From the IMG/VR virus record IMGVR_UViG_3300037780_000034, positions 160,001 through 224,000 of that record: DNA of 64,000 nucleotides; one strand, given 5' to 3'. Source of the DNA: a virus. Its lineage: Duplodnaviria; Caudoviricetes. The notes under the pieces are model-generated. The model worked only from the letters and a program-made list of their open reading frames with translations, made no database searches and had not been told where the DNA came from. A program made the position numbers and the translations under genes. Positions 1,570-39,516 of the stretch are shown here, piece after piece; position 1 is the first letter of the stretch, and the number at the start of each line of letters is the position of its first letter.

Positions 1570-2672
1570 CTTATTATGTTCGCACAGGTAACACATATCG
1601 TATTATGAACGAAAGCAATGTTGAAGTAACACAACATCTTGAACCAAAAACATATAGCGTTATTCAACACCCTATGACTGGTGAATATATGCTTCAACCA
1701 ATCAATGATTTTAAACTTCCTTCTAAAATTTATGGAAAAACGAAAATTCAAGCTGAACGAATTTTGAAAACTTTTAAAAATCGTCCTCTATCTACTGGTG
1801 TTCATATGGATGGCGTCAAAGGAAGTGGTAAATCGCTTTTGGCAAAATACGTTTCTGTGATTGCACAAGAACAAAAAATTCCAACTATTGTAATTAACAA
1901 TGCATTTTGCGGAGAAGAATTTAATAAGTTTGTGCAAAGTATTGATGTTCCTGCGATTCTTCTTTTTGACGAATTTGAAAAAGTATATGATTACGAACAT
2001 CAAAATAAGATTCTAACTTTGTTTGATGGGGTGTATCCTTCAAAGAAACTATTCCTTCTTACAACAAACGATTCTTATCGTGTATCTGAATTCTTGAAAA
2101 ATCGTCCTGGCCGCATTTATTATTCATTTAAATTTGATACGCTAGAACCTTCTTTTGTTCGGGAATATTGCGAAGATAATCTTGTAGATAAATCAAAAAT
2201 TGATAATGTTGTAAACTATACAAACATTTTTAGTTTCTTCAATTTTGATATGCTTTCAGCAGCAGTTGAAGAAATGAACCGCTATAACGAAAGCTTGCAA
2301 GAAGTTCTCGGATATCTTAATATCGTTCCTGAAACTAAGAATAGCGATTCTTATATGGTAATCTTTGAGTATAAAGGAAAACTTCAAGAAATTGATAAAA
2401 CTCATACTGGATTTAATCCAAATGATTTTTTTTATAATGTTTCAAAAAAGGAACTTGAAAAAGCATTTACACCAGAAGAAGTAAATGAAATGTCTGTTAT
2501 GTTTGATGACGATCAAGACATTACTTTTGTTCCTGAAGATATTTCAATGTTTGATAACAGTTCAAATTCTTTCATCTACGGAAGAAACAATAAAGGTGTT
2601 ACGGTTAAACTGATGTTCAAGAAAAACGAAAACAAAGCTCATTATAATTTTATCAATAACTTTGCTTTCTAA
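1566..2672 (+). CDS. AAA-family ATPase
   Basis: Walker A GVKGSGKS, Walker B LLFDEFEK, RPGR arginine-finger region. Confidence 0.85.
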   Translation: MTYYVRTGNTYRIMNESNVEVTQHLEPKTYSVIQHPMTGEYMLQPINDFKLPSKIYGKTKIQAERILKTFKNRPLSTGVHMDGVKGSGKSLLAKYVSVIAQEQKIPTIVINNAFCGEEFNKFVQSIDVPAILLFDEFEKVYDYEHQNKILTLFDGVYPSKKLFLLTTNDSYRVSEFLKNRPGRIYYSFKFDTLEPSFVREYCEDNLVDKSKIDNVVNYTNIFSFFNFDMLSAAVEEMNRYNESLQEVLGYLNIVPETKNSDSYMVIFEYKGKLQEIDKTHTGFNPNDFFYNVSKKELEKAFTPEEVNEMSVMFDDDQDITFVPEDISMFDNSSNSFIYGRNNKGVTVKLMFKKNENKAHYNFINNFAF

Positions 2673-2685
2673 AACAAGTTAAAAT

Positions 2686-2713
2686 AACAGACAGGGACTA
2701 GTCCCTGTCTGTT
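2686..2713 (+). terminator. Terminator-like perfect 28-bp palindrome
   Basis: AACAGACAGGGACTAGTCCCTGTCTGTT just after the ATPase stop. Confidence 0.7.
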
Positions 2714-2731
2714 TATATTAGGATTACAATT

Positions 2732-3250
2732 ATGAATAATGAAAGAAAATATCTTGTTTTTCTAGATATTGATGGTGTATTTACATCAAGTAGAGTTCAT
2801 TATGCTCATAATGGAAGCTACGATATGTGGGCAAGATTTGATCCAATTGCAGTTGACTTTATGAATAAAATACACGATAGATATCCTGTAGAATTTGTAA
2901 TTATGTCAACTTGGAAAAATTTCATTGATTCAAAAAGTATGCAATCCGAACATTGGGTCCAGTCTGCTTTTGCAAACAGTGGGTTTAGAGGAAAGTTTGC
3001 ATCACCTTGGAAAACTGATCCAGATGAAGAATGGATCAAACAAACAATGGATCGCGGAGAAGAAGTTCTTCGTTATTTAAATACTTATGGGTCTGATGTT
3101 GAAGATTTTATTCTGTTTGATGATAACCGATATAGATTTAATGAAATTCTTCCTAAAAAACGCCTAGTGTTAACTGATTCGGAAAATGGGTTATTGTTTA
3201 AACATATGTTGAATGCACAAAGCATTATGGGAGTTTGGAAAGAAAAATGA
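2732..3250 (+). CDS. HAD-superfamily phosphatase (Swiss-Army-knife RNA-repair-like HAD)
   Basis: Motif I LVFLDIDGV, motif II IMSTWK, motif IV ILFDD. Confidence 0.75.
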   Translation: MNNERKYLVFLDIDGVFTSSRVHYAHNGSYDMWARFDPIAVDFMNKIHDRYPVEFVIMSTWKNFIDSKSMQSEHWVQSAFANSGFRGKFASPWKTDPDEEWIKQTMDRGEEVLRYLNTYGSDVEDFILFDDNRYRFNEILPKKRLVLTDSENGLLFKHMLNAQSIMGVWKEK

Positions 3251-3498
3251 ATAAATTATCTGAAAATAAGCCATATGGCCCAGGAAATACTTTTTGGTAT
3301 GTAGATGATGATGGAGAAATTATGCGTTGTCGCTGGAATGATGCTGGATGGCAAACAAGAACATTTTTTAACATCAGAAACGAAAAAACAAATTCTAGTG
3401 AATATGAATATCTAAGACTTCTTAGAGAAGCATATGAAAGCGGAATGCGTGATCAACTTACAATAATTCAAAATTGTTTAGGAATAAAACAAAAATGA
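3247..3498 (+). CDS. Hypothetical protein
   Basis: ORF coupled to the HAD stop (ATGA overlap); start 3247 preferred over 3235. Confidence 0.55.
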   Translation: MNKLSENKPYGPGNTFWYVDDDGEIMRCRWNDAGWQTRTFFNIRNEKTNSSEYEYLRLLREAYESGMRDQLTIIQNCLGIKQK

Positions 3499-3734: not shown

Positions 3735-3929
3735 ATGACAGAACGTGAAAAAGAATTATTAGGAACTATTGAAGGTCTTGTAAACTGGATTTCTGCATTA
3801 CGAGAACTGGTTGATAACACAGATTGTAACCCAGATAATATTGAAGATTTTTCAGAAGTATTATTGGCTAGTGATCTTCAAAGAATTTCTGGCGAAAATA
3901 TATTAGAAAAATATGGATTTAGAAAATGA
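3735..3929 (+). CDS. Hypothetical protein
   Basis: 64-aa ORF tightly packed between neighbours. Confidence 0.55.
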   Translation: MTEREKELLGTIEGLVNWISALRELVDNTDCNPDNIEDFSEVLLASDLQRISGENILEKYGFRK

Positions 3930-4369: not shown

Positions 4370-4939
4370 ATGGAAGTATTTTTAGCAGCAGCAGGAGGAA
4401 CTTGGTTTGCGGTCTTTGTTCTTCTAATATTTATATTAGGAATTGCCACATCAGAATTTGATAGTTTTTTTGGTGGAATGATTACATTAATAATTGGACT
4501 ACTTGGTTTAGATTTTATATTTGGTTATCCAATTATTCAATCAATTATTGGAAATCCTCTAATTATTTTACTATCAGGAGCAATCTACATCGCAATTGGT
4601 TCTGCATATACTGCTATTTGGAAATGGCCAGATTACATACGAAGTAAGTCAGATAATATAGAATCAAATTACCAAAGTTGGAAAAAAAGAAGACTAAGTG
4701 ATAATGAACCTTGCACGTTTGAAGATTTTCTTGAATCAGATGGTTATAGTTATTATGTAGCATCTAATAACAAAAATAAATTATCTACTTGGGTATTAAT
4801 GTGGCCATTTTCAATGTTTTGGGAAGTCTCAAGAAAGCCAGCAATTTGGGTATTTAATACATCATACAAAATGTTAGGAAATATGTTTGAAATCGTAGGG
4901 AAAAATACTGCAAGAAAAATACATAAAACTAAAAAATAA
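4370..4939 (+). CDS. Multi-pass membrane protein
   Basis: Three N-terminal hydrophobic helices; AGGAG SD supports ATG 4370 rather than 4292. Confidence 0.7.
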   Translation: MEVFLAAAGGTWFAVFVLLIFILGIATSEFDSFFGGMITLIIGLLGLDFIFGYPIIQSIIGNPLIILLSGAIYIAIGSAYTAIWKWPDYIRSKSDNIESNYQSWKKRRLSDNEPCTFEDFLESDGYSYYVASNNKNKLSTWVLMWPFSMFWEVSRKPAIWVFNTSYKMLGNMFEIVGKNTARKIHKTKK

Positions 4940-4966
4940 GTATAAATACAAGAAGGGAGAATAAAG

Positions 4967-5299
4967 ATGAAAAAAATCTTACTATCTATCCTTTTTGTAT
5001 TTTATTTGTTTCCAGCAAATGCATATACGTTTTCTGGAAATTGTGTTCAATATGATATATATGAATACTTTTTAATTGCAAAGTTTGATATGAAATTATA
5101 TTCGTGGGCAGTCACAGAAAACGGAACTAAAACAATATGGCTTTTTGTTAATGAACAAAAACATTTTGCTACAATAACAGTAGGTTTAAATGGATGTTCT
5201 ACTTTAATGATGCCAGAAGACCAGTTGTCTTTTTTCAAAAGAAAAGAATCATCTATACCAGGTCATGTATTGCCGTTTTCTTTTGGTGAAAATCTATAA
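4967..5299 (+). CDS. Hypothetical exported protein
   Basis: MKKILLSILFVFYLFPANA signal peptide; GGAG SD. Confidence 0.6.
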   Translation: MKKILLSILFVFYLFPANAYTFSGNCVQYDIYEYFLIAKFDMKLYSWAVTENGTKTIWLFVNEQKHFATITVGLNGCSTLMMPEDQLSFFKRKESSIPGHVLPFSFGENL

Positions 5300-33500: not shown

Positions 33501-34917
33501 AAAAGAATATATATATTGTAATGTAGTAATTCATAATTTTATAAAAATGTTGAATTTCGGTTATACTAAAAATCTATATAACTTAGTTGATTATTATGAT
33601 AACTATTATATATTTGATATGAATAAAAATTTTGTAAGATTGCCACATTATAAAGATATGGGCGATTCTAAATTGTTTTCTTTTGTATTTTCAAAAGAAA
33701 AAGATTTTAAAGATTTTTTTGCTGATTTAATGTTACAATTTAGTGATGAATACAAAATTGAAAAAAATGTTATAGACAAGAATGTCATCAAAGAAGAATG
33801 GTATCACGGAACCCCAGATGTTCGTGATTTGCAAAAAATTGGCGGATTTGAAAATAGAACTATGAACGTTTCTTATATTTCAAATCCATCATTATGGCGT
33901 GAATTACAAACTAAAGCAAATGAACTTCGTGATACTGACAACACCGAATACTTTAAGGTATTAGACGAAATTACAAAATTAAGAAAATATATGACTGTAA
34001 AAAGTCCTGTATTTTTAACAAATGTTTATAATGTAGCAAAAACTTATGCAGATGATACCCGTGCATTTGACTATCAAGGTGCAAATCCAAGAATTTTAAA
34101 AGTTGAAGTAGATGCTGGAAAAAATCTTAAAATAAATGCGGACGGAAAAGACTTTCGTGGAATAGATTTAGATGTTGTTATTAAATCTTTTATCAATGGT
34201 GGAGTTTCAATAGAAAAAATAAAAAATGTTATAGAAATGTTTTCACCAGAATTACGTAATAATAAATTGTCAACTGATGCAGTTTCAGTAATAGCACAGT
34301 TGTTTAATTTTGACACAGTTGATGTTACTGGTGTTTTAGATAGTTTTAATGTTGGAAAAATAAAGTCTACTGTTAGGATGGTATTTGATCCAAAACGTAT
34401 TAAAATTATAAGTAATTTAAAAGAATCTTTTGGATATAAAGTGATGGCTTATGATAGAAAAAACAAGATAGCATATTCATTGGCAGATAAAAATGTTAAA
34501 TTTCCAATAGACATAAACAAGAAAATAACAATTGGTAAAAATGGATTGTATTTGAGTAATAACAAAGACTTTGTGAAAAATTATTACAGTGGATTAACCG
34601 ATACTGATGAAATATTAGTAAAATTTGAATATGATCCTGTTGACATTATAAGTGGTAATGACAGTGATTCTGAATCTGAATTCACTGTGAAAACAGCAAA
34701 GATAGCAGACATAGAATTACTTTCTGAAACTATTTCAGTTGATTTGATTAATTTTTTAAAAGAAAATATGAGTGTAACAGGAACTGCAACTGCAGTCTCA
34801 GCGAGAAAAAAAGGATTAGAACCAGGAACTCCTGAATGGTTCGAACATTGGTTTAGTTTGCCTTATATGATAGACCAAAGAAAAAAGAATAAAGGTAGAA
34901 AAGGTAAACGAAAATGA
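30523..34917 (+). CDS. Large modular late protein with a GH19 lysozyme/chitinase-like domain and an ADP-ribosyltransferase-like (YHGT) module
   Basis: GH19: MSQMAVES...DGFRYRGRGYVQLTGKYNY...INGG (~32320-32790); WYHGTPD...VFLT..YNVAKTYA (~33800-34400); start 30523 chosen for the AGGA SD and the upstream terminator. Confidence 0.8.
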   Translation: MEREIKMLIGLIYIDRLLKSDKNASLPNVAFNVSRYIGSNIRSRELLNKYEELLINGKLELFNLVKVKDNWALVSKLNPNHVLKLFKDKPDDNELSKTIKSIIRQYVIENIDIINNILVEHEKSAKYNFLNTVVLPKNVNLTESYDNQFIIEQIELYEGFLDSIKTYLQARFDQTMDNVSSTITNFKEAGIVIKDIISNSEYLEKVSTQIGKRLLTLIKTIRAIIAKASNSVNNSNLKLAINKLNDIVGLFTKGQQKAVQLGGWQGLLYKLGMYGFIKFIYSKISKFLNLSELVNFVSDTVFSEFLDKFGIFQNMMNSVSALTMQKFMGFFETLNEVKEIFIDTLSDIRRKLMTGSNISSNLPSVNENTGRIVKGVNTTVDVGPNEISKQAAKFGNKVNKDGYPPILHKKARKNTTPNTLFNLGLTETIKKVGSKYVIYSKDGKKKLGSYTTKTDAEKRLKQIEYFKHKNERYSNLERAIMEGGHTLEEGPLDKLKKLGKAAAVATSLGTTGFLGAIGYDGMTQAQAADAQRGQSSQSSARSATQRAQDASTSTSNSELAPKKSPIPKANPRNNDKEDLSSVKPKPRPDVLLLTQSPYEKLLLNYAKQSGMQGIELVSFMSQMAVESQHFQKMIERGTKEYFDRYEPDTSPERANTLGNTVVGDGFRYRGRGYVQLTGKYNYNLASEALNIDLINNPELAANPHNAAKIALWYWNSKVKRLTDDFDDVKKVTYLINGGYHALKDRREYFNRYKNRLAMTEAEIVDLDTQRKEKELKDFHKKIRSDISSRMEEKTEAYRIAKDQGIFDDLPVGSRFTLEKGASYKVISHSMNMKKTDQLPRYQLEFRNKFKFGPPKFIEYNGKYYQPIVYATEVAGENEGSKSGFELDKLINFETGEKRYKKFTGPKRVTEKRKQNQVKGKEKLPKMSKPSTSGEQPHPYRGRLVGETIIDLTPFLISEYEKSIKNKVLSENKIDNERVFKFLKEYTDNSPSIKKEYIYCNVVIHNFIKMLNFGYTKNLYNLVDYYDNYYIFDMNKNFVRLPHYKDMGDSKLFSFVFSKEKDFKDFFADLMLQFSDEYKIEKNVIDKNVIKEEWYHGTPDVRDLQKIGGFENRTMNVSYISNPSLWRELQTKANELRDTDNTEYFKVLDEITKLRKYMTVKSPVFLTNVYNVAKTYADDTRAFDYQGANPRILKVEVDAGKNLKINADGKDFRGIDLDVVIKSFINGGVSIEKIKNVIEMFSPELRNNKLSTDAVSVIAQLFNFDTVDVTGVLDSFNVGKIKSTVRMVFDPKRIKIISNLKESFGYKVMAYDRKNKIAYSLADKNVKFPIDINKKITIGKNGLYLSNNKDFVKNYYSGLTDTDEILVKFEYDPVDIISGNDSDSESEFTVKTAKIADIELLSETISVDLINFLKENMSVTGTATAVSARKKGLEPGTPEWFEHWFSLPYMIDQRKKNKGRKGKRK

Positions 34918-35381: not shown

Positions 35382-36194
35382 ATGGTATCTAAAAGAATAC
35401 AAATGTTAGAAGAAAAAATGTCTGACGCACAAAAAAAGAAGCGTGAAGACATAGTTCAAGCTATGAAAAAAGATAAAAAAAGAATGCAAGATTCATATGG
35501 TGACAAATGGGAAGATGTGATGTATGCAACTGCAACAAAACAGGCTATGAGAGAAACCAAACTTGACCCAGTTGGCAAAGAAGATGATGACATTAACAAT
35601 GATGGAAAGGTTGATTCTACCGACGAATATCTTAAAAACAAACGTAAAGCTATTTCAAAAAATATTAAAGAATCACGAAAAATGACAAAAGCTGAAATTG
35701 AAAAAAAGATCAGCGATGGAGAATGGGAAACCGATTTCAAAATTGATGTAGGTAAACCTGCTGTTGTAAAAAACTCAAAAACTGGGAAAAAGATGCGTAT
35801 AATGGTAACAGAAGGTGTATTAGATTCTACAGATGATGATGGATGGATGGCAAAAAGTCAACTATACAAAACTGCAAAATATGCAATTGCATTGCATCAA
35901 ATGATTAATGATGCTGATGATTTAGAACCTTGGGTTCAAGCAAAAATTACAAGGGCAAGTGTTGATTTATCTGCAGTTAAACATTATATGGAATATCTTT
36001 TGAGTAGAAATGAACAAGAATATACCAATACAAATGTTCCTATGACATTAGAAACAGAAATCTTAGAAGCAAAAAAAAGAAAGAAAAGTTTGCGTAATCC
36101 TAAAGATAATCCTTGTTGGAAAGGATATGAACCAGTTGGAACAAAAATGAAAGACGGAAAAGAAGTTCCAAACTGTGTTCCAAAAAAGAAATAA
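35382..36194 (+). CDS. Modular late protein (prohead core/internal protein-like)
   Basis: Modules separated by LEE/MRE/IKE/VTE/ILE motifs; EF-hand-like DINNDGKVD; C-terminal CWKGY...VPNCVP module. Confidence 0.65.
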
Positions 36195-36218
36195 GAGGGG
36201 AAATTTCCCCTCTTTTTA
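36193..36218. terminator. Bidirectional terminator / perfect 22-bp palindrome at the strand convergence
   Basis: AAGAGGGGAAATTTCCCCTCTT with A/T tracts on both sides. Confidence 0.8.
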
Positions 36219-36290
36219 TTATACAGCCATAGGTGCTTTAATTGCAGGATGCGATACATAATCTATGTTAAATAGAAAACCCAAAAACAT
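36219..36290 (-). pseudogene. Orphaned thymidylate synthase C-terminal fragment
   Basis: - strand reads MFLGFLFNIDYVSHPAIKAPMAV*; DYVSHPAIKAPMAV is a canonical ThyA C-terminus. Confidence 0.75.
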
Positions 36291-36299
36291 ATCAACTAT

Positions 36300-36307
36300 T
36301 ATAAATA
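36300..36307 (+). promoter_or_regulatory. T4-type late promoter of the GIY-YIG gene
   Basis: Exact TATAAATA 18 nt upstream of the ATG. Confidence 0.7.
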
Positions 36308-36325
36308 GTATAAAGGAAAATAGAT

Positions 36326-37207
36326 ATGGAAAAATGTGGTATTATATATAGAATAATAAATGTCATTAATGGCAAATGTTATTATGGTTCAACAATAAAT
36401 GCAGATAAACGATGGAAAAAACATATTCAGACATTGAATAAAAATGTACACCACAATGTTCATTTGCAGCGTTCATGGAACACTTATGGCGAAAAAAATT
36501 TTATATTTGAAATAATTGAAAAAGATATTCCTAAAGATAAATTATTCTTAATAGAGCAGAATTATATTGACAATAACATTGGTGGTTATAACTTAGGAAA
36601 AGCAGGCGGAGGCGATCAACTTGCAAATCATCCAAATAAAAAAGAAATAATAGAAAAAAGATCAAAAACCCAGAAAAAAAATGTTGGTAAAATGTCTGAA
36701 GAAGAAAAAAAAATTAAATGGGGAAAAAACGGAAATGAAAATCCTAAATATATAGATGGACGTTCATACACTGGTAAAAAATGCAAAAATTGTGATAATA
36801 TGGTTAATTTTTATCTAAAATCTGGAATATGTAATAAATGCAGAAATCGAACGGGCAACAACAATCCTTTTTATGGAAAAACACATAATCAAGAAACTAA
36901 AGATAAGATTTCTAAAGCAAATATTGGAAGAATCATGACAGATGAAGCAAAAGAATCTATAACTGGAGAAAATAGTGGTAGATATATAGGAACATACCAT
37001 ACTCCTTGGGGTATGTTCCCATCTTCGTCACAGGCAGAAAAAAACAATTTATTTATGAAATCAGCAGCAATACATAGAATATGTTTAAATCCAGATAACA
37101 TTATCAAACGTATTGGAAAATCAAAATTTCTTAAAGATTATGGATTATCATGTATTGGTAAAACTTATCGTGATCTAGGTTTCTGGTTTGATCCTAAACA
37201 GCCATAG
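36326..37207 (+). mobile_element. Free-standing GIY-YIG homing endonuclease with NUMOD3 motif
   Basis: GIIYRIINVINGKCYYGST...R..H; E in LIEQNYI; NNPFYGKTHNQETKDKISKAN (NUMOD3); convergent overlap with the thyA 3' end. Confidence 0.9.
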
Positions 37208-38063
37208 GCATAGGAATAAACTCATGATGTTGATAATTATTCAGTGTAAATTTATTAACATCAGAAAAATTAAATTTATTACATAATCCATCCTGTAATC
37301 TGAAAGAACTGTCAATTTTTAAGGTTGGTAGAGGATAAACTTCACGATCTACAACTTTTGATAAGATATCAATATGGTTATTATATATGTGCATGTCTCC
37401 TATACTATGAATAAAGTCTCCAACTTCAAGTCCGCATTCGCGTGCAATAATATGAGTTAATAGTGCATAACTTGCTTGATTGAAATTTAACCCAAGTCCA
37501 ACATCACATGATCTTTGAAACATAAAACAATTCAATTTATTTTCATATACCCTAAAATGTGACAATACATGACAAGGAGGAAGTGACATTTTTTCTAATG
37601 AAGGCACATTCCATGCTGAAATAATTAACCTTCGTGAAGTTGGATTGTTTTTTATTTCAGTAATTAGGTTCTTTATTTGATCAACACCACCAAAATTTCT
37701 CCATTGAAACCCATAGATTGGACCTAATTCTTTATACATATGATTATTGACATACCCCAATTCAATGCCTTGGTTGTCTGCGTTATCTGTCCATATTGTT
37801 CGCTTATTAACTAATTCTTCACGACTTTTTCCGTATGTCAATTCGGCAAGGCGTCTTTCATCTGTAGAACCTTCAAGAAACCACAAAAGTTCTCCTACAA
37901 CTGATTTCCATGCAAGTTTCTTCGTAGTCACAGCAGGAAACCCTTCTTGTAAATCAAAACGCATCTGATATCCAAAAACAGAACGTGCACCTACACCAGT
38001 TCTATCTTCTACATCAATTCCATTTTTTATTACATGTTTAATTGCATCTTGATATTGCCTCAT
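37194..38063 (-). CDS. thyA: Thymidylate synthase
   Basis: DRTGVG, ELLWFL, LGPIYGFQWR, RRLIISAW, LPPCH, QRSCD, GDMHIY. Confidence 0.96.
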   Translation of the reverse strand: MRQYQDAIKHVIKNGIDVEDRTGVGARSVFGYQMRFDLQEGFPAVTTKKLAWKSVVGELLWFLEGSTDERRLAELTYGKSREELVNKRTIWTDNADNQGIELGYVNNHMYKELGPIYGFQWRNFGGVDQIKNLITEIKNNPTSRRLIISAWNVPSLEKMSLPPCHVLSHFRVYENKLNCFMFQRSCDVGLGLNFNQASYALLTHIIARECGLEVGDFIHSIGDMHIYNNHIDILSKVVDREVYPLPTLKIDSSFRLQDGLCNKFNFSDVNKFTLNNYQHHEFIPMPMAV

Positions 38064-38118
38064 TATTTTCTCCTATATTTAAATTCCATAATATATTGTA
38101 AACATTTTAAATATTCTT

Positions 38119-38730
38119 TCATAATAATCCGCTCAACTCTCTCATTCTTCTTGTATTAAAATTACTAATTACTTCTCCAAGAACCTCTTTGTTAGACATT
38201 AACACAAACTGATACCTTGTGTAGTTAGAATCATCATAGTTTATATATTTTTCAAGCTCTTCTACTGAATTTATTTGTTTTAAAGATTGTCCTGGCATTG
38301 TGTTATCATATACTGCAACCATTACACCAGAATCAATAAGTCTTTTCCAAACTTTTATACTACTATTACTTAAAAAAATATCGCTCATTACCCTTATATT
38401 TGAGTTATCATCTAATACTTTTTTATATAAATCAGTTGCATATGGTGGTTTATTTTTATATTGTGGGTTTTTTGCAACTGCATTAACTATCAAAGTTTGA
38501 GGTTTTATAGATAATTCTATTCCTACAACAATTTCATCATTTTTTTCATACCAATAATAAAGAGTTTGTTTTCCGGCAATCTTTTTATACCCACCTCCCA
38601 AATCTTGAGGTTTAGTAATTTTTGACCTTTCTTTGATATTATATTCTATCATATCATAAAGTTCAATATTTCCTATATTTTCTGGCATTTCTGATAGCCA
38701 GCTTTCAACAAAGTCTGTCCTACTATTCAT
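38119..38730 (-). CDS. Hypothetical protein, possible GNAT-like fold
   Basis: VNAVAKNPQYKNKPPYATDLY...MSDIFLS...VWKRL pattern; C-terminal RMRELSGL. Confidence 0.5.
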   Translation of the reverse strand: MNSRTDFVESWLSEMPENIGNIELYDMIEYNIKERSKITKPQDLGGGYKKIAGKQTLYYWYEKNDEIVVGIELSIKPQTLIVNAVAKNPQYKNKPPYATDLYKKVLDDNSNIRVMSDIFLSNSSIKVWKRLIDSGVMVAVYDNTMPGQSLKQINSVEELEKYINYDDSNYTRYQFVLMSNKEVLGEVISNFNTRRMRELSGLL

Positions 38731-39230
38731 ACTCGTTTAACCCACTTCTGTATATAAAGGTCATCTTTCGTGAATGTTTGTTCATCTAATAAAAAATTTC
38801 TCATTAATTTCCATTTTGGTAAAAATACATCACAATCATAATTTCCTTCTATTCTTGACAAATATATTTCATCAATTATTGGTATACAGCTTTCAAAAAG
38901 TTGTGCACCACCTATAATCCAAACATCGTCAATGCCGCCATACCTTGCTTCAATCACATCTTTAACGATCCTACAAACATCTTTCCCACTGTAATAACCG
39001 TGCGGTCTTGGGTTGTAGTGTTCCATACTAGTAGATGTAATTACAAGATTGATTCTATTAGGCAATGGCTTGCGTGGTAAACTTTCCCAAGTTTTACGCC
39101 CCATTACTACAGCCTGACCATCTGTTTTTTGTTTAAACCATTTAAGGTCTGCAGGATTATGGGGCCAAGGAAGTGTATTATTTTTTCCAATTCCCCAGTT
39201 ATCATCACAAGCAAATATAGCTTTAATCAT
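38727..39230 (-). CDS. folA: Dihydrofolate reductase
   Basis: IKAIFACDDNWGIGKNNTLPW..DLKWF...VVMGRKTWESL...LPNR...IIGGAQ; ATG 39230 preferred. Confidence 0.95.
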   Translation of the reverse strand: MIKAIFACDDNWGIGKNNTLPWPHNPADLKWFKQKTDGQAVVMGRKTWESLPRKPLPNRINLVITSTSMEHYNPRPHGYYSGKDVCRIVKDVIEARYGGIDDVWIIGGAQLFESCIPIIDEIYLSRIEGNYDCDVFLPKWKLMRNFLLDEQTFTKDDLYIQKWVKRV

Positions 39231-39516
39231 TGTCTTTGTTGCCATTTTCTCCAAGTAATCTGTTTTTTTCTTTTTCAACAGTTTCTTCAATTAATTTCAT
39301 ATCAAGTTCAATTTTTATGTCATAAACTTCGTGAGGGAATGACCTTATGGCATCTTCTATACTCGGAAAGGCTTTTAATTCTTCGTTATTCAATGAAAAA
39401 ACTTTATCTTCTGTTGACACAATAGTAAGTCTTTTAATAAAGATAATGGGAATTTCAGTAAATTCCACATCATCCATTATTTTTGAAAATGTTCTTTCTT
39501 TTTTAGTTATTGCCAT
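39223..39516 (-). CDS. Hypothetical protein
   Basis: 97-aa ORF overlapping the dfr start. Confidence 0.6.
   Translation of the reverse strand: MAITKKERTFSKIMDDVEFTEIPIIFIKRLTIVSTEDKVFSLNNEELKAFPSIEDAIRSFPHEVYDIKIELDMKLIEETVEKEKNRLLGENGNKDND

Follow-up and report, generated by a model that had tools for sequence, protein, structure and literature searches.

The resident thymidylate synthase gene (thyA) of an uncultured jumbo phage has been replaced by a foreign thyA allele that is accompanied at its 3' end by a gene for a free-standing, I-TevI-like GIY-YIG homing endonuclease. The locus lies in a window of 64,000 nucleotides (nt), corresponding to bases 160001-224000 of the 317.7-kb IMG/VR virus record IMGVR_UViG_3300037780_000034; the sequencing runs containing this record are pond metagenomes. 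What the replacement left of the resident gene is a 5' stub and, beginning just after the RSxD codons, a 3' remnant in two pieces (Table 1). In our assessment, the nuclease gene and its thyA allele probably constitute a homing cassette, with the two genes physically locked by a conserved overlap of their 3' ends. A preliminary description of the locus had proposed that an endonuclease cassette brought in thyA coding sequence of its own while leaving the resident C-terminus stranded, and this core of the proposal is borne out by the stub, the remnant and the comparison with a syntenic relative (L033; loci compared here are designated by L numbers).

The layout is as initially described: the 289-amino-acid (aa) thyA ends NNYQHHEFIPMPMAV-stop at 37194 on the minus strand, and the 293-aa nuclease open reading frame (ORF) on the plus strand overlaps its final 14 nt, the two genes standing tail to tail. 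The PF00303 profile matches thyA across positions 2-266 of 266 (E 9e-96), the PPCH motif of the catalytic Cys and the QRSCD and NFN motifs are present, and the gene is predicted to encode a full-length ThyA enzyme with an NFNQ motif and a PMPMAV tail. A catalytic domain, a CxxC...CxxC zinc finger and NUMOD3 can be recognised in the nuclease, the C-terminal third of which is uncharacterised. Pfam searches detected the GIY-YIG domain PF01541 (E 3e-9) and NUMOD3 (E 2.8e-8), whereas the I-TevI_ZnF match, at 25.1 bits, is slightly below the 27-bit cutoff. Among domains of known structure, the I-TevI catalytic domain (1mk0, E 3e-13) aligns at the GIY, YxGS, KRW-R and GYN motifs and at the Glu within IEx, and residues 149-206 correspond to the DNA-binding domain of I-TevI (1i3j, E 1.7e-5). 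By these domain matches, the protein is predicted to be an I-TevI-type GIY-YIG homing endonuclease, but one whose coding sequence is not contained in a group I intron: it is situated outside thyA, itself uninterrupted, and runs antisense to it. The absence of an intron had been claimed from the outset and is corroborated by the intact thyA ORF, which spans the whole Pfam profile, and by Rfam searches, in which no intron or other RNA family was detected at E<=1 between window positions 34000 and 40000. Contigs from three pond/metagenome runs display the same arrangement, and a joined form lacking the nuclease gene was not seen in them, rare variants being invisible in contigs.

On the far side of the nuclease gene, the minus strand at 36219-36290 reads ...NIDYVSHPAIKAPMAV-stop with an inverted repeat directly after it, so that the orphan ThyA C-terminus recognised in the preliminary description stands. 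The remnant in fact extends beyond the limit originally reported, to 36293, and the minus strand between the nuclease start and the hairpin reads VDMFLGFLFNIDYVSHPAIKAPMAV-stop. In a low-stringency tblastn search, the tail of the remnant is 80% identical over 15 aa to the ThyA tail of L033. When compared with the generic ThyA profile, the window remnant is the second best of 3498 six-frame window pieces, at only E 1.2; it is taken as real because of the comparison with L033, L113, L118 and L119 rather than because of its own score. L113 (E 3e-5) and L118 each have a homologous remnant in the corresponding place, and that of L119 comprises 102 codons (E 1e-37).

The part of the remnant proximal to the nuclease gene is not tail sequence. 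The decapeptide DMFLGFLFNI corresponds to the thymidylate synthase motif D-V-F-L-G-L-P-F-N-I that follows RSxD, approximately 100 codons before the stop, and an internal deletion of ~80 codons fuses it to the tail. By hand count, the window motif piece matches the L033 motif at 22 of 30 nt; a MAFFT placement of this piece at a tail-proximal region of L033 was rejected, since it matches only 12 of 30 nt by the same count and since the motif is unambiguous in L118, L119, L121 and L126. At the same position, L118 reads DVFLGLLFNIA, L121 reads VFLGLPFNF and later PPMAV-stop, L126 reads LFGILFNI, and the 102 open codons of L119 start with FFVGVPFNIASY. All five remnants, including that of the window, therefore start at D-V-F-L-G..PFN beside the 5' end of the nuclease gene, which is incompatible with the earlier suggestion that the insertion had occurred in the last codons of thyA. 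The L118 remnant carries a 17-nt deletion and a frameshift and is therefore decaying, and it retains the L033 junction with the downstream 212-aa gene. The L113 remnant differs in structure, and L120 and L122 have none. A P-M-A-V-stop ending is shared by nearly all ThyA proteins. The direct repeat that had been noted on either side of the nuclease gene does exist, as 14 nt with one mismatch (36220-36233 and 37195-37208), but it represents these conserved P-M-A-V-stop codons rather than an insertion footprint or target duplication; similarly short repeats are common in the AT-rich window.

In the window, the junction of the 5' stub with the upstream 203-aa gene's stop is still that of the resident gene, as in L033. 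The window stub is 13 codons long, compared with 24 codons in L118 (21/24 identical to L033, E 9e-16) and 19 in L114, which lacks the nuclease gene. A common leader of 20-25 nt with AGGAG follows the stub in each of these three loci and precedes the foreign start codon; this leader (38064-38083 in the window) marks the left end of the imported segment. Against the generic ThyA profile, the window stub is top-ranked but at E 23. Judged by these comparisons, the whole thyA of the window genome, and not its tail alone, is foreign, because a 5' stub of the resident gene persists at 38084-38122. The stub also forms an ORF (38063-38122, minus strand; L118:4906-5004; L114:~4915-5003) whose stop overlaps the start of the foreign thyA in all three stub loci, as TAATG (the window form) or ATGA; it may deliver ribosomes to the new thyA by translational coupling, which could explain its persistence.

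The foreign allele, referred to here as R type, is characterised by the unusual motif QRSCDVGLGLNFNQASY and, in the window, the tail HHEFIPMPMAV. R-type genes are 80-87% identical among five backbones and 55-59% identical to the thyA of L033. All five end HH[ED]F[TI]PMPMAV-stop, and their tail codons vary synonymously while the amino acids are conserved; the tail is therefore under purifying selection. The HHEFTPMPMAV ending is also found in L114 and L116, neither of which carries the nuclease gene. It is thus the normal tail of the lineage, and the view that it is a custom cleavage-resistant patch, for which the preliminary description had itself named such relatives as contrary evidence, has to be abandoned.

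No close relative emerged among cultured phages when 50,697 phage records were searched at the DNA and protein levels; the best matches were 58% identical for ThyA and ~35-42% for the nuclease, and most of the nuclease matches listed are not located at a thyA 3' end, that of Aes508 lying inside a joined td coding sequence. A pattern scan of IMG/VR with the nuclease protein gave no match, and a scan with ThyA recovered relatives of <=64% identity only, all without the nuclease gene and with the canonical motif. A large protein collection contained four ThyA clusters 82-84% identical to the window thyA, together with three nuclease clusters at 72-78% identity and five more at 48-55%. The contigs of the relatives share a backbone that includes the GH19 giant protein, small genes, frd and DUF2201. 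The thyA gene is accompanied by the nuclease gene in L113 and L118 and is found without it in L114/L115 and L116/L117. The occurrence of the nuclease gene at this one locus is therefore sporadic (present in the window, L113 and L118; absent from L114, L116 and L033), and a thyA-tail remnant lies beyond it in 3/3 nuclease-bearing loci and in 0/2 nuclease-less loci. L117 (GCA_048623225.1, JBMCBX010000123.1) is a 3.6-kb contig with a phage-type thyA and phage neighbours filed in a 'Candidatus Woesearchaeota' metagenome-assembled genome, and is probably a mis-binned phage fragment.

L033 was identified by means of its counterpart of the 270-aa gene downstream, which is 82% identical in its best segment and 83% in a global alignment. 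This contig is syntenic with the window, lacks the nuclease gene and has a thyA ending GYESHPAIKAPMAV-stop; it is thus a nuclease-less relative with the SHPAIKAPMAV ending, as the preliminary description had predicted. Its frd is 65% identical to that of the window, versus 67-78% for L114, L116 and L118, and its neighbour protein is 83% identical, versus 65-67% for L114 and L118; on its backbone genes, L033 is thus no more distant from the window than L114, L116 and L118 are, or is nearer, and it lies inside the backbone diversity. Since stub, leader and junction are common to the window, L118 and L114, a complete foreign thyA followed by the nuclease gene entered the resident gene in a single founding event, and the scars were then trimmed lineage by lineage. 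In L114, the stub is kept whereas the nuclease gene and the 3' remnant are gone, and its thyA stop and downstream junction, ATGGCAGTTTAA followed by CGATAA, match the L118 remnant rather than the L118 thyA. Such a locus would be expected if the two PMAV-stop repeats had recombined, so that the repeat is plausibly a route of nuclease loss rather than an insertion footprint. The nuclease-less relatives are most likely to have lost the nuclease gene, since L114 retains the 5' stub of the same replacement event.

A second, different backbone provides an invaded/naive pair. In L119, the locus lies beside a class II ribonucleotide reductase gene and the nuclease is 72% identical to that of the window; the L127 contig carries the naive allele P0074. 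In 45-nt windows, the two thyA genes are 91-100% identical at the nt level over the first ~315 nt, 84% in the following window and 40-80% from nt ~360. Conversely, 91% identity links the L119 remnant and the 480 nt beyond it to the part of L127 that begins at thyA codon ~197, and the remnant is 92% identical to naive P0074 but 55% identical to the functional C-terminal part of L119 itself. By this comparison, the thyA of L119 is a hybrid: its native 5' part gives way to a foreign 3' part, beyond which come the nuclease gene and, last, the native 3' part that was displaced. Upstream of the junction, ~220 nt separate it from the left crossover, and the sequence is foreign from thyA nt ~350 to the stop. 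About the first four codons of the remnant differ from the naive allele and resemble the F-L/V-G form of other elements, which is consistent with a short element-borne arm. CAACG is located 7 nt before the first retained codon in L127 and 0 nt before it in L033. L119 further encodes, on the minus strand, the class II ribonucleotide reductase (1759-3492) and an ORF of 316 aa whose GIY-YIG match, of SegE type, is faint (739-1689); this ORF could represent another nuclease, so that nucleotide-metabolism genes would be bracketed as in the islands of homing endonuclease genes (HEG-islands) described in the literature.

Linkage to thyA recurs throughout the nuclease loci compared. All nine members examined (window, L113, L118, L119, L120, L121, L122, L125 and L126), which are 47-78% identical and reside on differing backbones, are convergent with and antisense to thyA at its 3' end, and the linkage thus persists down to 47% nuclease identity. 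The overlap with thyA measures 14 nt in six of the nine (window, L113, L119, L120, L121 and L126), 20 nt in L118 and 8 nt in L122, whereas one locus has a 25-nt gap holding a hairpin instead. The L126 locus was chosen solely for its NFNQ ThyA and proved to carry both a nuclease family member and a motif remnant. By contrast, 27 IMG/VR thyA loci all have the canonical motif, and none carries a nuclease of the I-TevI-like thyA-linked family.

In the window (37490-37540, minus strand; thyA codons ~184-200), QRSCD-(V/L)GLG-x-NFNQASY replaces the near-universal ..FLG.PFNIASY, and the NFNQ form recurs in L113, L114, L116, L118 and L126. Asn occupies this position in only ~13 of 120 homologues, and the Pro-to-Asn and Ile-to-Gln changes flank the substrate-binding Asn. 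The NFNQ thyA lineages examined are either linked to the nuclease gene or bear scars of invasion, but five other thyA genes linked to it keep the canonical PFN. A nuclease-resistance role of the change may be considered as a lead only, as the NFNQ genes possibly form one sister group with a single ancestral change.

The intron-encoded relatives suggest where the nuclease might cut. In the T-even phage U5, the td intron is inserted between ...QRSVDVFLG and LPFNIASY..., and CAACG falls in the Q-R codons. CAACG is the cleavage motif preferred by I-TevI, which like I-BmoI acts on genes for thymidylate synthase (PMC12774661). Relative to the intron insertion site, the remnants begin a few codons upstream, at the cleavage region, which fits the end of a break rather than a former exon 2. 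The putative promoter octamer TATAAATA is located 6 nt from the D codon of the remnant in the window, L118 and L119 alike; the motif begins at exactly this distance in each case, and the junction has therefore been inherited with the element.

We propose that the nuclease would cut naive thyA alleles at or near the RSxD codons, the region where I-TevI and I-BmoI act, and thus probably ~100 codons upstream of the tail. The break would be repaired from a co-infecting, cassette-bearing genome, with copying of the linked thyA and nuclease gene. The left crossover could occur anywhere upstream: within thyA, as in L119, it would generate a hybrid gene, whereas past the start codon, as envisaged for the window lineage, it would result in whole-gene replacement and a stub, and in the founding event would have been illegitimate. 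The right crossover would fall in the short thyA-derived motif arm beside the putative nuclease promoter. The native 3' part, from cut site to stop, would thus be left downstream as a dead copy, subsequently decaying through lineage-specific deletions, and recombination between the two PMAV-stop repeats would remove nuclease gene and remnant to yield nuclease-less descendants. In the homing of T4 introns, one-sided and illegitimate double-strand-break repair, with microhomology and long resection, has been documented (PMC2988022).

Several points weigh against this scenario. We infer the cut site only from the positions of the junctions and from homology, and CNNNG pentamers also occur in the linked, presumed immune, thyA alleles. 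The window stub (E 23) and remnant (E 1.2) are short, so that their interpretation leans on the relatives, and the left junction of the window lineage, a stub followed by a whole foreign gene, requires an illegitimate join that is not reconstructable. The nuclease-less L116 has neither stub nor remnant and contains an unrelated spacer, compatible with loss or with never having been invaded. Finally, 80-87% identity across backbones is by itself no proof of horizontal spread, because ThyA evolves slowly.

Among the other explanations, the one closest to the preliminary description holds that the cassette entered the last thyA codons with an 11-nt duplication and provided only a new cleavage-resistant tail, the remaining thyA being native. 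It draws on the difference between the tail and the remnant and on the short direct repeat flanking the insert, but we regard it as very improbable: the tail recurs in nuclease-less relatives, upstream lies a 5' stub of the other thyA type, the remnant contains a mid-gene motif, the whole gene is only 55-59% identical to the syntenic L033 thyA, and the repeat consists of conserved PMAV-stop codons. Somewhat more credible, yet still unlikely, is a history of two unrelated events, in which the R-type thyA arrived by ordinary phage recombination and the nuclease gene settled downstream later, the thyA fragment being passively carried or captured. The R-type thyA genes without a nuclease gene in L114 and L116 and the strong mosaicism of phage genomes (p97 identities of 36-94%) would agree with it. 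However, the 3' remnant is situated beyond the nuclease gene, not beside the thyA stop, in 3/3 nuclease-bearing loci of the lineage, the nuclease family is locked to thyA ends across unrelated backbones, and in the L119/L127 pair replacement and nuclease arrival appear as a single colinear insertion.

The presence of two thyA-like tails within 1 kb could also be attributed to a diverged tandem duplication of the 3' end of the phage's own thyA. Such an origin is hardly conceivable, given that the remnant matches the L033 tail far better than the tail of the adjacent gene and that the 102-codon remnant of L119 is 55% identical to the functional copy versus 92% to the naive relative. We attach equally little weight to a remnant still in use, whether joined to thyA by splicing or recoding or expressed as a small peptide. 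An ATG-initiated ORF of 23 aa is indeed present (36219-36290), but no Rfam intron or RNA family is found at E<=1, thyA is complete by itself, and the remnant has a frameshift and a 17-nt deletion in L118, a different structure in L113 and no counterpart in L120 and L122. Homing of a linked nuclease-thyA cassette thus remains our preferred explanation.

A further and more tentative possibility, which we would sooner doubt than accept, concerns the motif piece itself (36264-36293). It might be a selected nuclease binding site, serving both as the right homology arm in later rounds of homing and as an autorepression operator, in which case, with the conserved 3' overlap added, the nuclease and the immune thyA would form a long-lived, co-evolving unit. 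I-TevI represses its own late promoter. At the motif piece, binding without cutting would be predicted, the cleavage motif having been replaced by the promoter. If this is true, the nuclease and the immune thyA would be the intron-free counterpart, at the same site, of the partnership between the td intron and I-TevI.

Table 1 Features of the thyA-nuclease locus in the window
Feature	Position	Strand	Remarks
frd	38727-39290	-	
203-aa gene, upstream of thyA	38119-38730	-	
5' stub of resident thyA, 13 codons MKEYLKCLQYIME	38084-38122	-	L033 counterpart is MKEYLDCLRYIMD
Foreign thyA leader with AGGAG as ribosome-binding site	38064-38083	-	Common to all five R-type loci
Intact foreign thyA (R type, 289 aa), cassette cargo	37194-38063	-	Full PF00303 match
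Antisense overlap of nuclease gene and thyA, 14 nt	37194-37207	both	Nuclease P-K-Q-P-stop codons read over thyA M-A-V-stop
Free-standing I-TevI-like GIY-YIG homing endonuclease gene, 293 aa	36326-37207	+	Pfam and structure-domain matches
Putative nuclease-promoter octamer TATAAATA, T4-late-promoter-like	36300-36307	+	19 nt upstream of nuclease ATG
3' remnant part 1, 10 codons DMFLGFLFNI	36264-36293	-	Abuts putative nuclease promoter region
3' remnant part 2, last 14 codons and stop, DYVSHPAIKAPMAV-stop	36219-36263	-	Displaced resident (L033-type) thyA
Terminator-like bidirectional hairpin	36193-36214	both	Terminator scan; listed as inverted repeat

A likely ribosome-binding site, AAGGA, is located 7 nt upstream of the nuclease start. 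The assignment of TATAAATA as the nuclease promoter is putative; with 14 copies in the window against 16.6 expected, the octamer shows no enrichment there. In L113 (6739-6800), the remnant deletion has taken both TATAAATA and the motif piece, just TATATAAT-like sequence precedes the nuclease gene, and expression of the nuclease could be altered or abolished. In L125 (~3868-3920, thyA-sense), the reading VFMLKGIPSNKS upstream of the nuclease gene overlaps the promoter-like octamer CATAAATA; it may be a strongly decayed motif remnant, being too degenerate to call. The terminator-like hairpin is common to the convergent 270-aa gene on the plus strand and the thyA side on the minus strand, and it is kept after the L113 remnant.

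The 3' flank of thyA is a general hotspot of insertions and deletions. A gene of 212-214 aa, the stop of which overlaps the stop of thyA or of the remnant by 4 nt, is found in L033 (5011-5655), L114 (5867-6508) and L118 (6828-7466) and is absent from the window, L113 and L116. The 203-aa gene that separates frd and thyA in the window and L116 is absent from L033 (6531-6564, minus strand), where its last nine codons, RMRELSGVL, remain before thyA, representing a second deletion scar at the same hotspot.

I-TevI is the textbook example of an intron-borne homing endonuclease, and thyA/td is its textbook target. The window nuclease shares with I-TevI of the T4 td intron and I-BmoI of the Bacillus mojavensis thyA intron the GIY-YIG catalytic domain, the zinc finger and the NUMOD3 region, as well as the association with thymidylate synthase and an insertion junction at the RSxD/CAACG region next to the td intron site (PMC12774661). 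It differs in being encoded outside and antisense to thyA, with no group I intron found, in having ~90 extra C-terminal residues, and in being ~35-42% identical to I-TevI-like phage genes. Furthermore, the host gene here stays intact by replacement of coding sequence, not by splicing. Like the T4 Seg and Mob nucleases, the window nuclease is free-standing and adjoins its presumed target, a flank is co-converted (~220 nt of thyA in L119), and the gene is present or absent among relatives (PMC2988022). In Seg/Mob homing, however, there is normally homology on both sides and no duplicated fragment, whereas here the nuclease gene has effectively been inserted at the predicted cut site within the target, together with a replacement 3' part. 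Another free-standing nuclease that landed in an important nucleotide-metabolism gene of a T4-like phage without an intron is MobE in nrdA of Aeromonas phage Aeh1; both nrdA halves are reported to be functional there, and the protein reassembles (PMC2988022, PMC3045599), as opposed to one complete gene and a dead displaced piece in the present case.

The closest published precedents are the mORF elements of fungal mitochondria and the HEG-islands of phages. Examples of mORF elements with a foreign C-terminus are Allomyces macrogynus atp6, Glomus atp6/atp9/cox2/nad3, Rhizopus atp9 and Mortierella cox2 (PMC3630166). In these, an endonuclease ORF enters a protein gene with a foreign 3' part, and the displaced native C-terminus is dispensable (PMC3630166) and closer to naive relatives than to the inserted copy, which is exactly the pattern of the L119/L127 pair. 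The mORF order of gene core, foreign 3' part, endonuclease ORF and native 3' part is reproduced in L119; in the window it is the same, but the whole gene is foreign, a 5' stub is left too, and the remnant is internally deleted. The phage elements also differ in residing in a phage rather than an organelle, in targeting thyA, and in a nuclease gene that is antisense and overlaps the gene end, or abuts it across a short gap, in 9/9 loci and may have its own promoter, whereas the mORF lies after the gene on the same strand and often in frame with it. For phage HEG-islands, cargo-gene fragments nearby have been proposed as substrates for the recombination that accompanies later homing (Barth, Dunham and Seed 2023, PMC10055350). 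Common to both are free-standing nuclease genes beside essential cargo, cargo that is more conserved than the backbone and small cargo fragments in the vicinity. Here, by contrast, a single nuclease gene takes the place of a bracketing pair, its 3' overlap with the cargo persists down to 47% nuclease identity, a specific endonuclease site that is already known can be assigned as the boundary of the fragment, and both crossovers are defined by a naive/invaded pair. The same arrangement in a phage thyA was not found in the literature searched, the coverage of which was not exhaustive. The window case thus combines the two precedents in a single-nuclease thyA cassette and adds to them the antisense 3' overlap that locks nuclease and cargo, as well as the insertion of an I-TevI relative at the I-TevI cleavage region.

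Collectively, these results suggest that relatives of I-TevI can invade a gene harmlessly near the td cut site by means of a replacement coding sequence rather than a ribozyme. Several stages of this process seem to be represented in the metagenomic series, from naive alleles (L033, L127) through a fresh invasion with an intact displaced part (L119) to decaying scars (window, L118, L113, L121, L126) and apparent loss of the nuclease gene (L114). The series offers a testable system for studying how a free-standing endonuclease jumps between unrelated phages, how a metabolic gene undergoes xenologous replacement, and how intron-borne and free-standing nucleases are related. It also carries a warning, in that thyA phylogenies and annotations of such phages include hybrid genes and unannotated fragments. 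The locus shows how a homing nuclease can invade an important gene without an intron.

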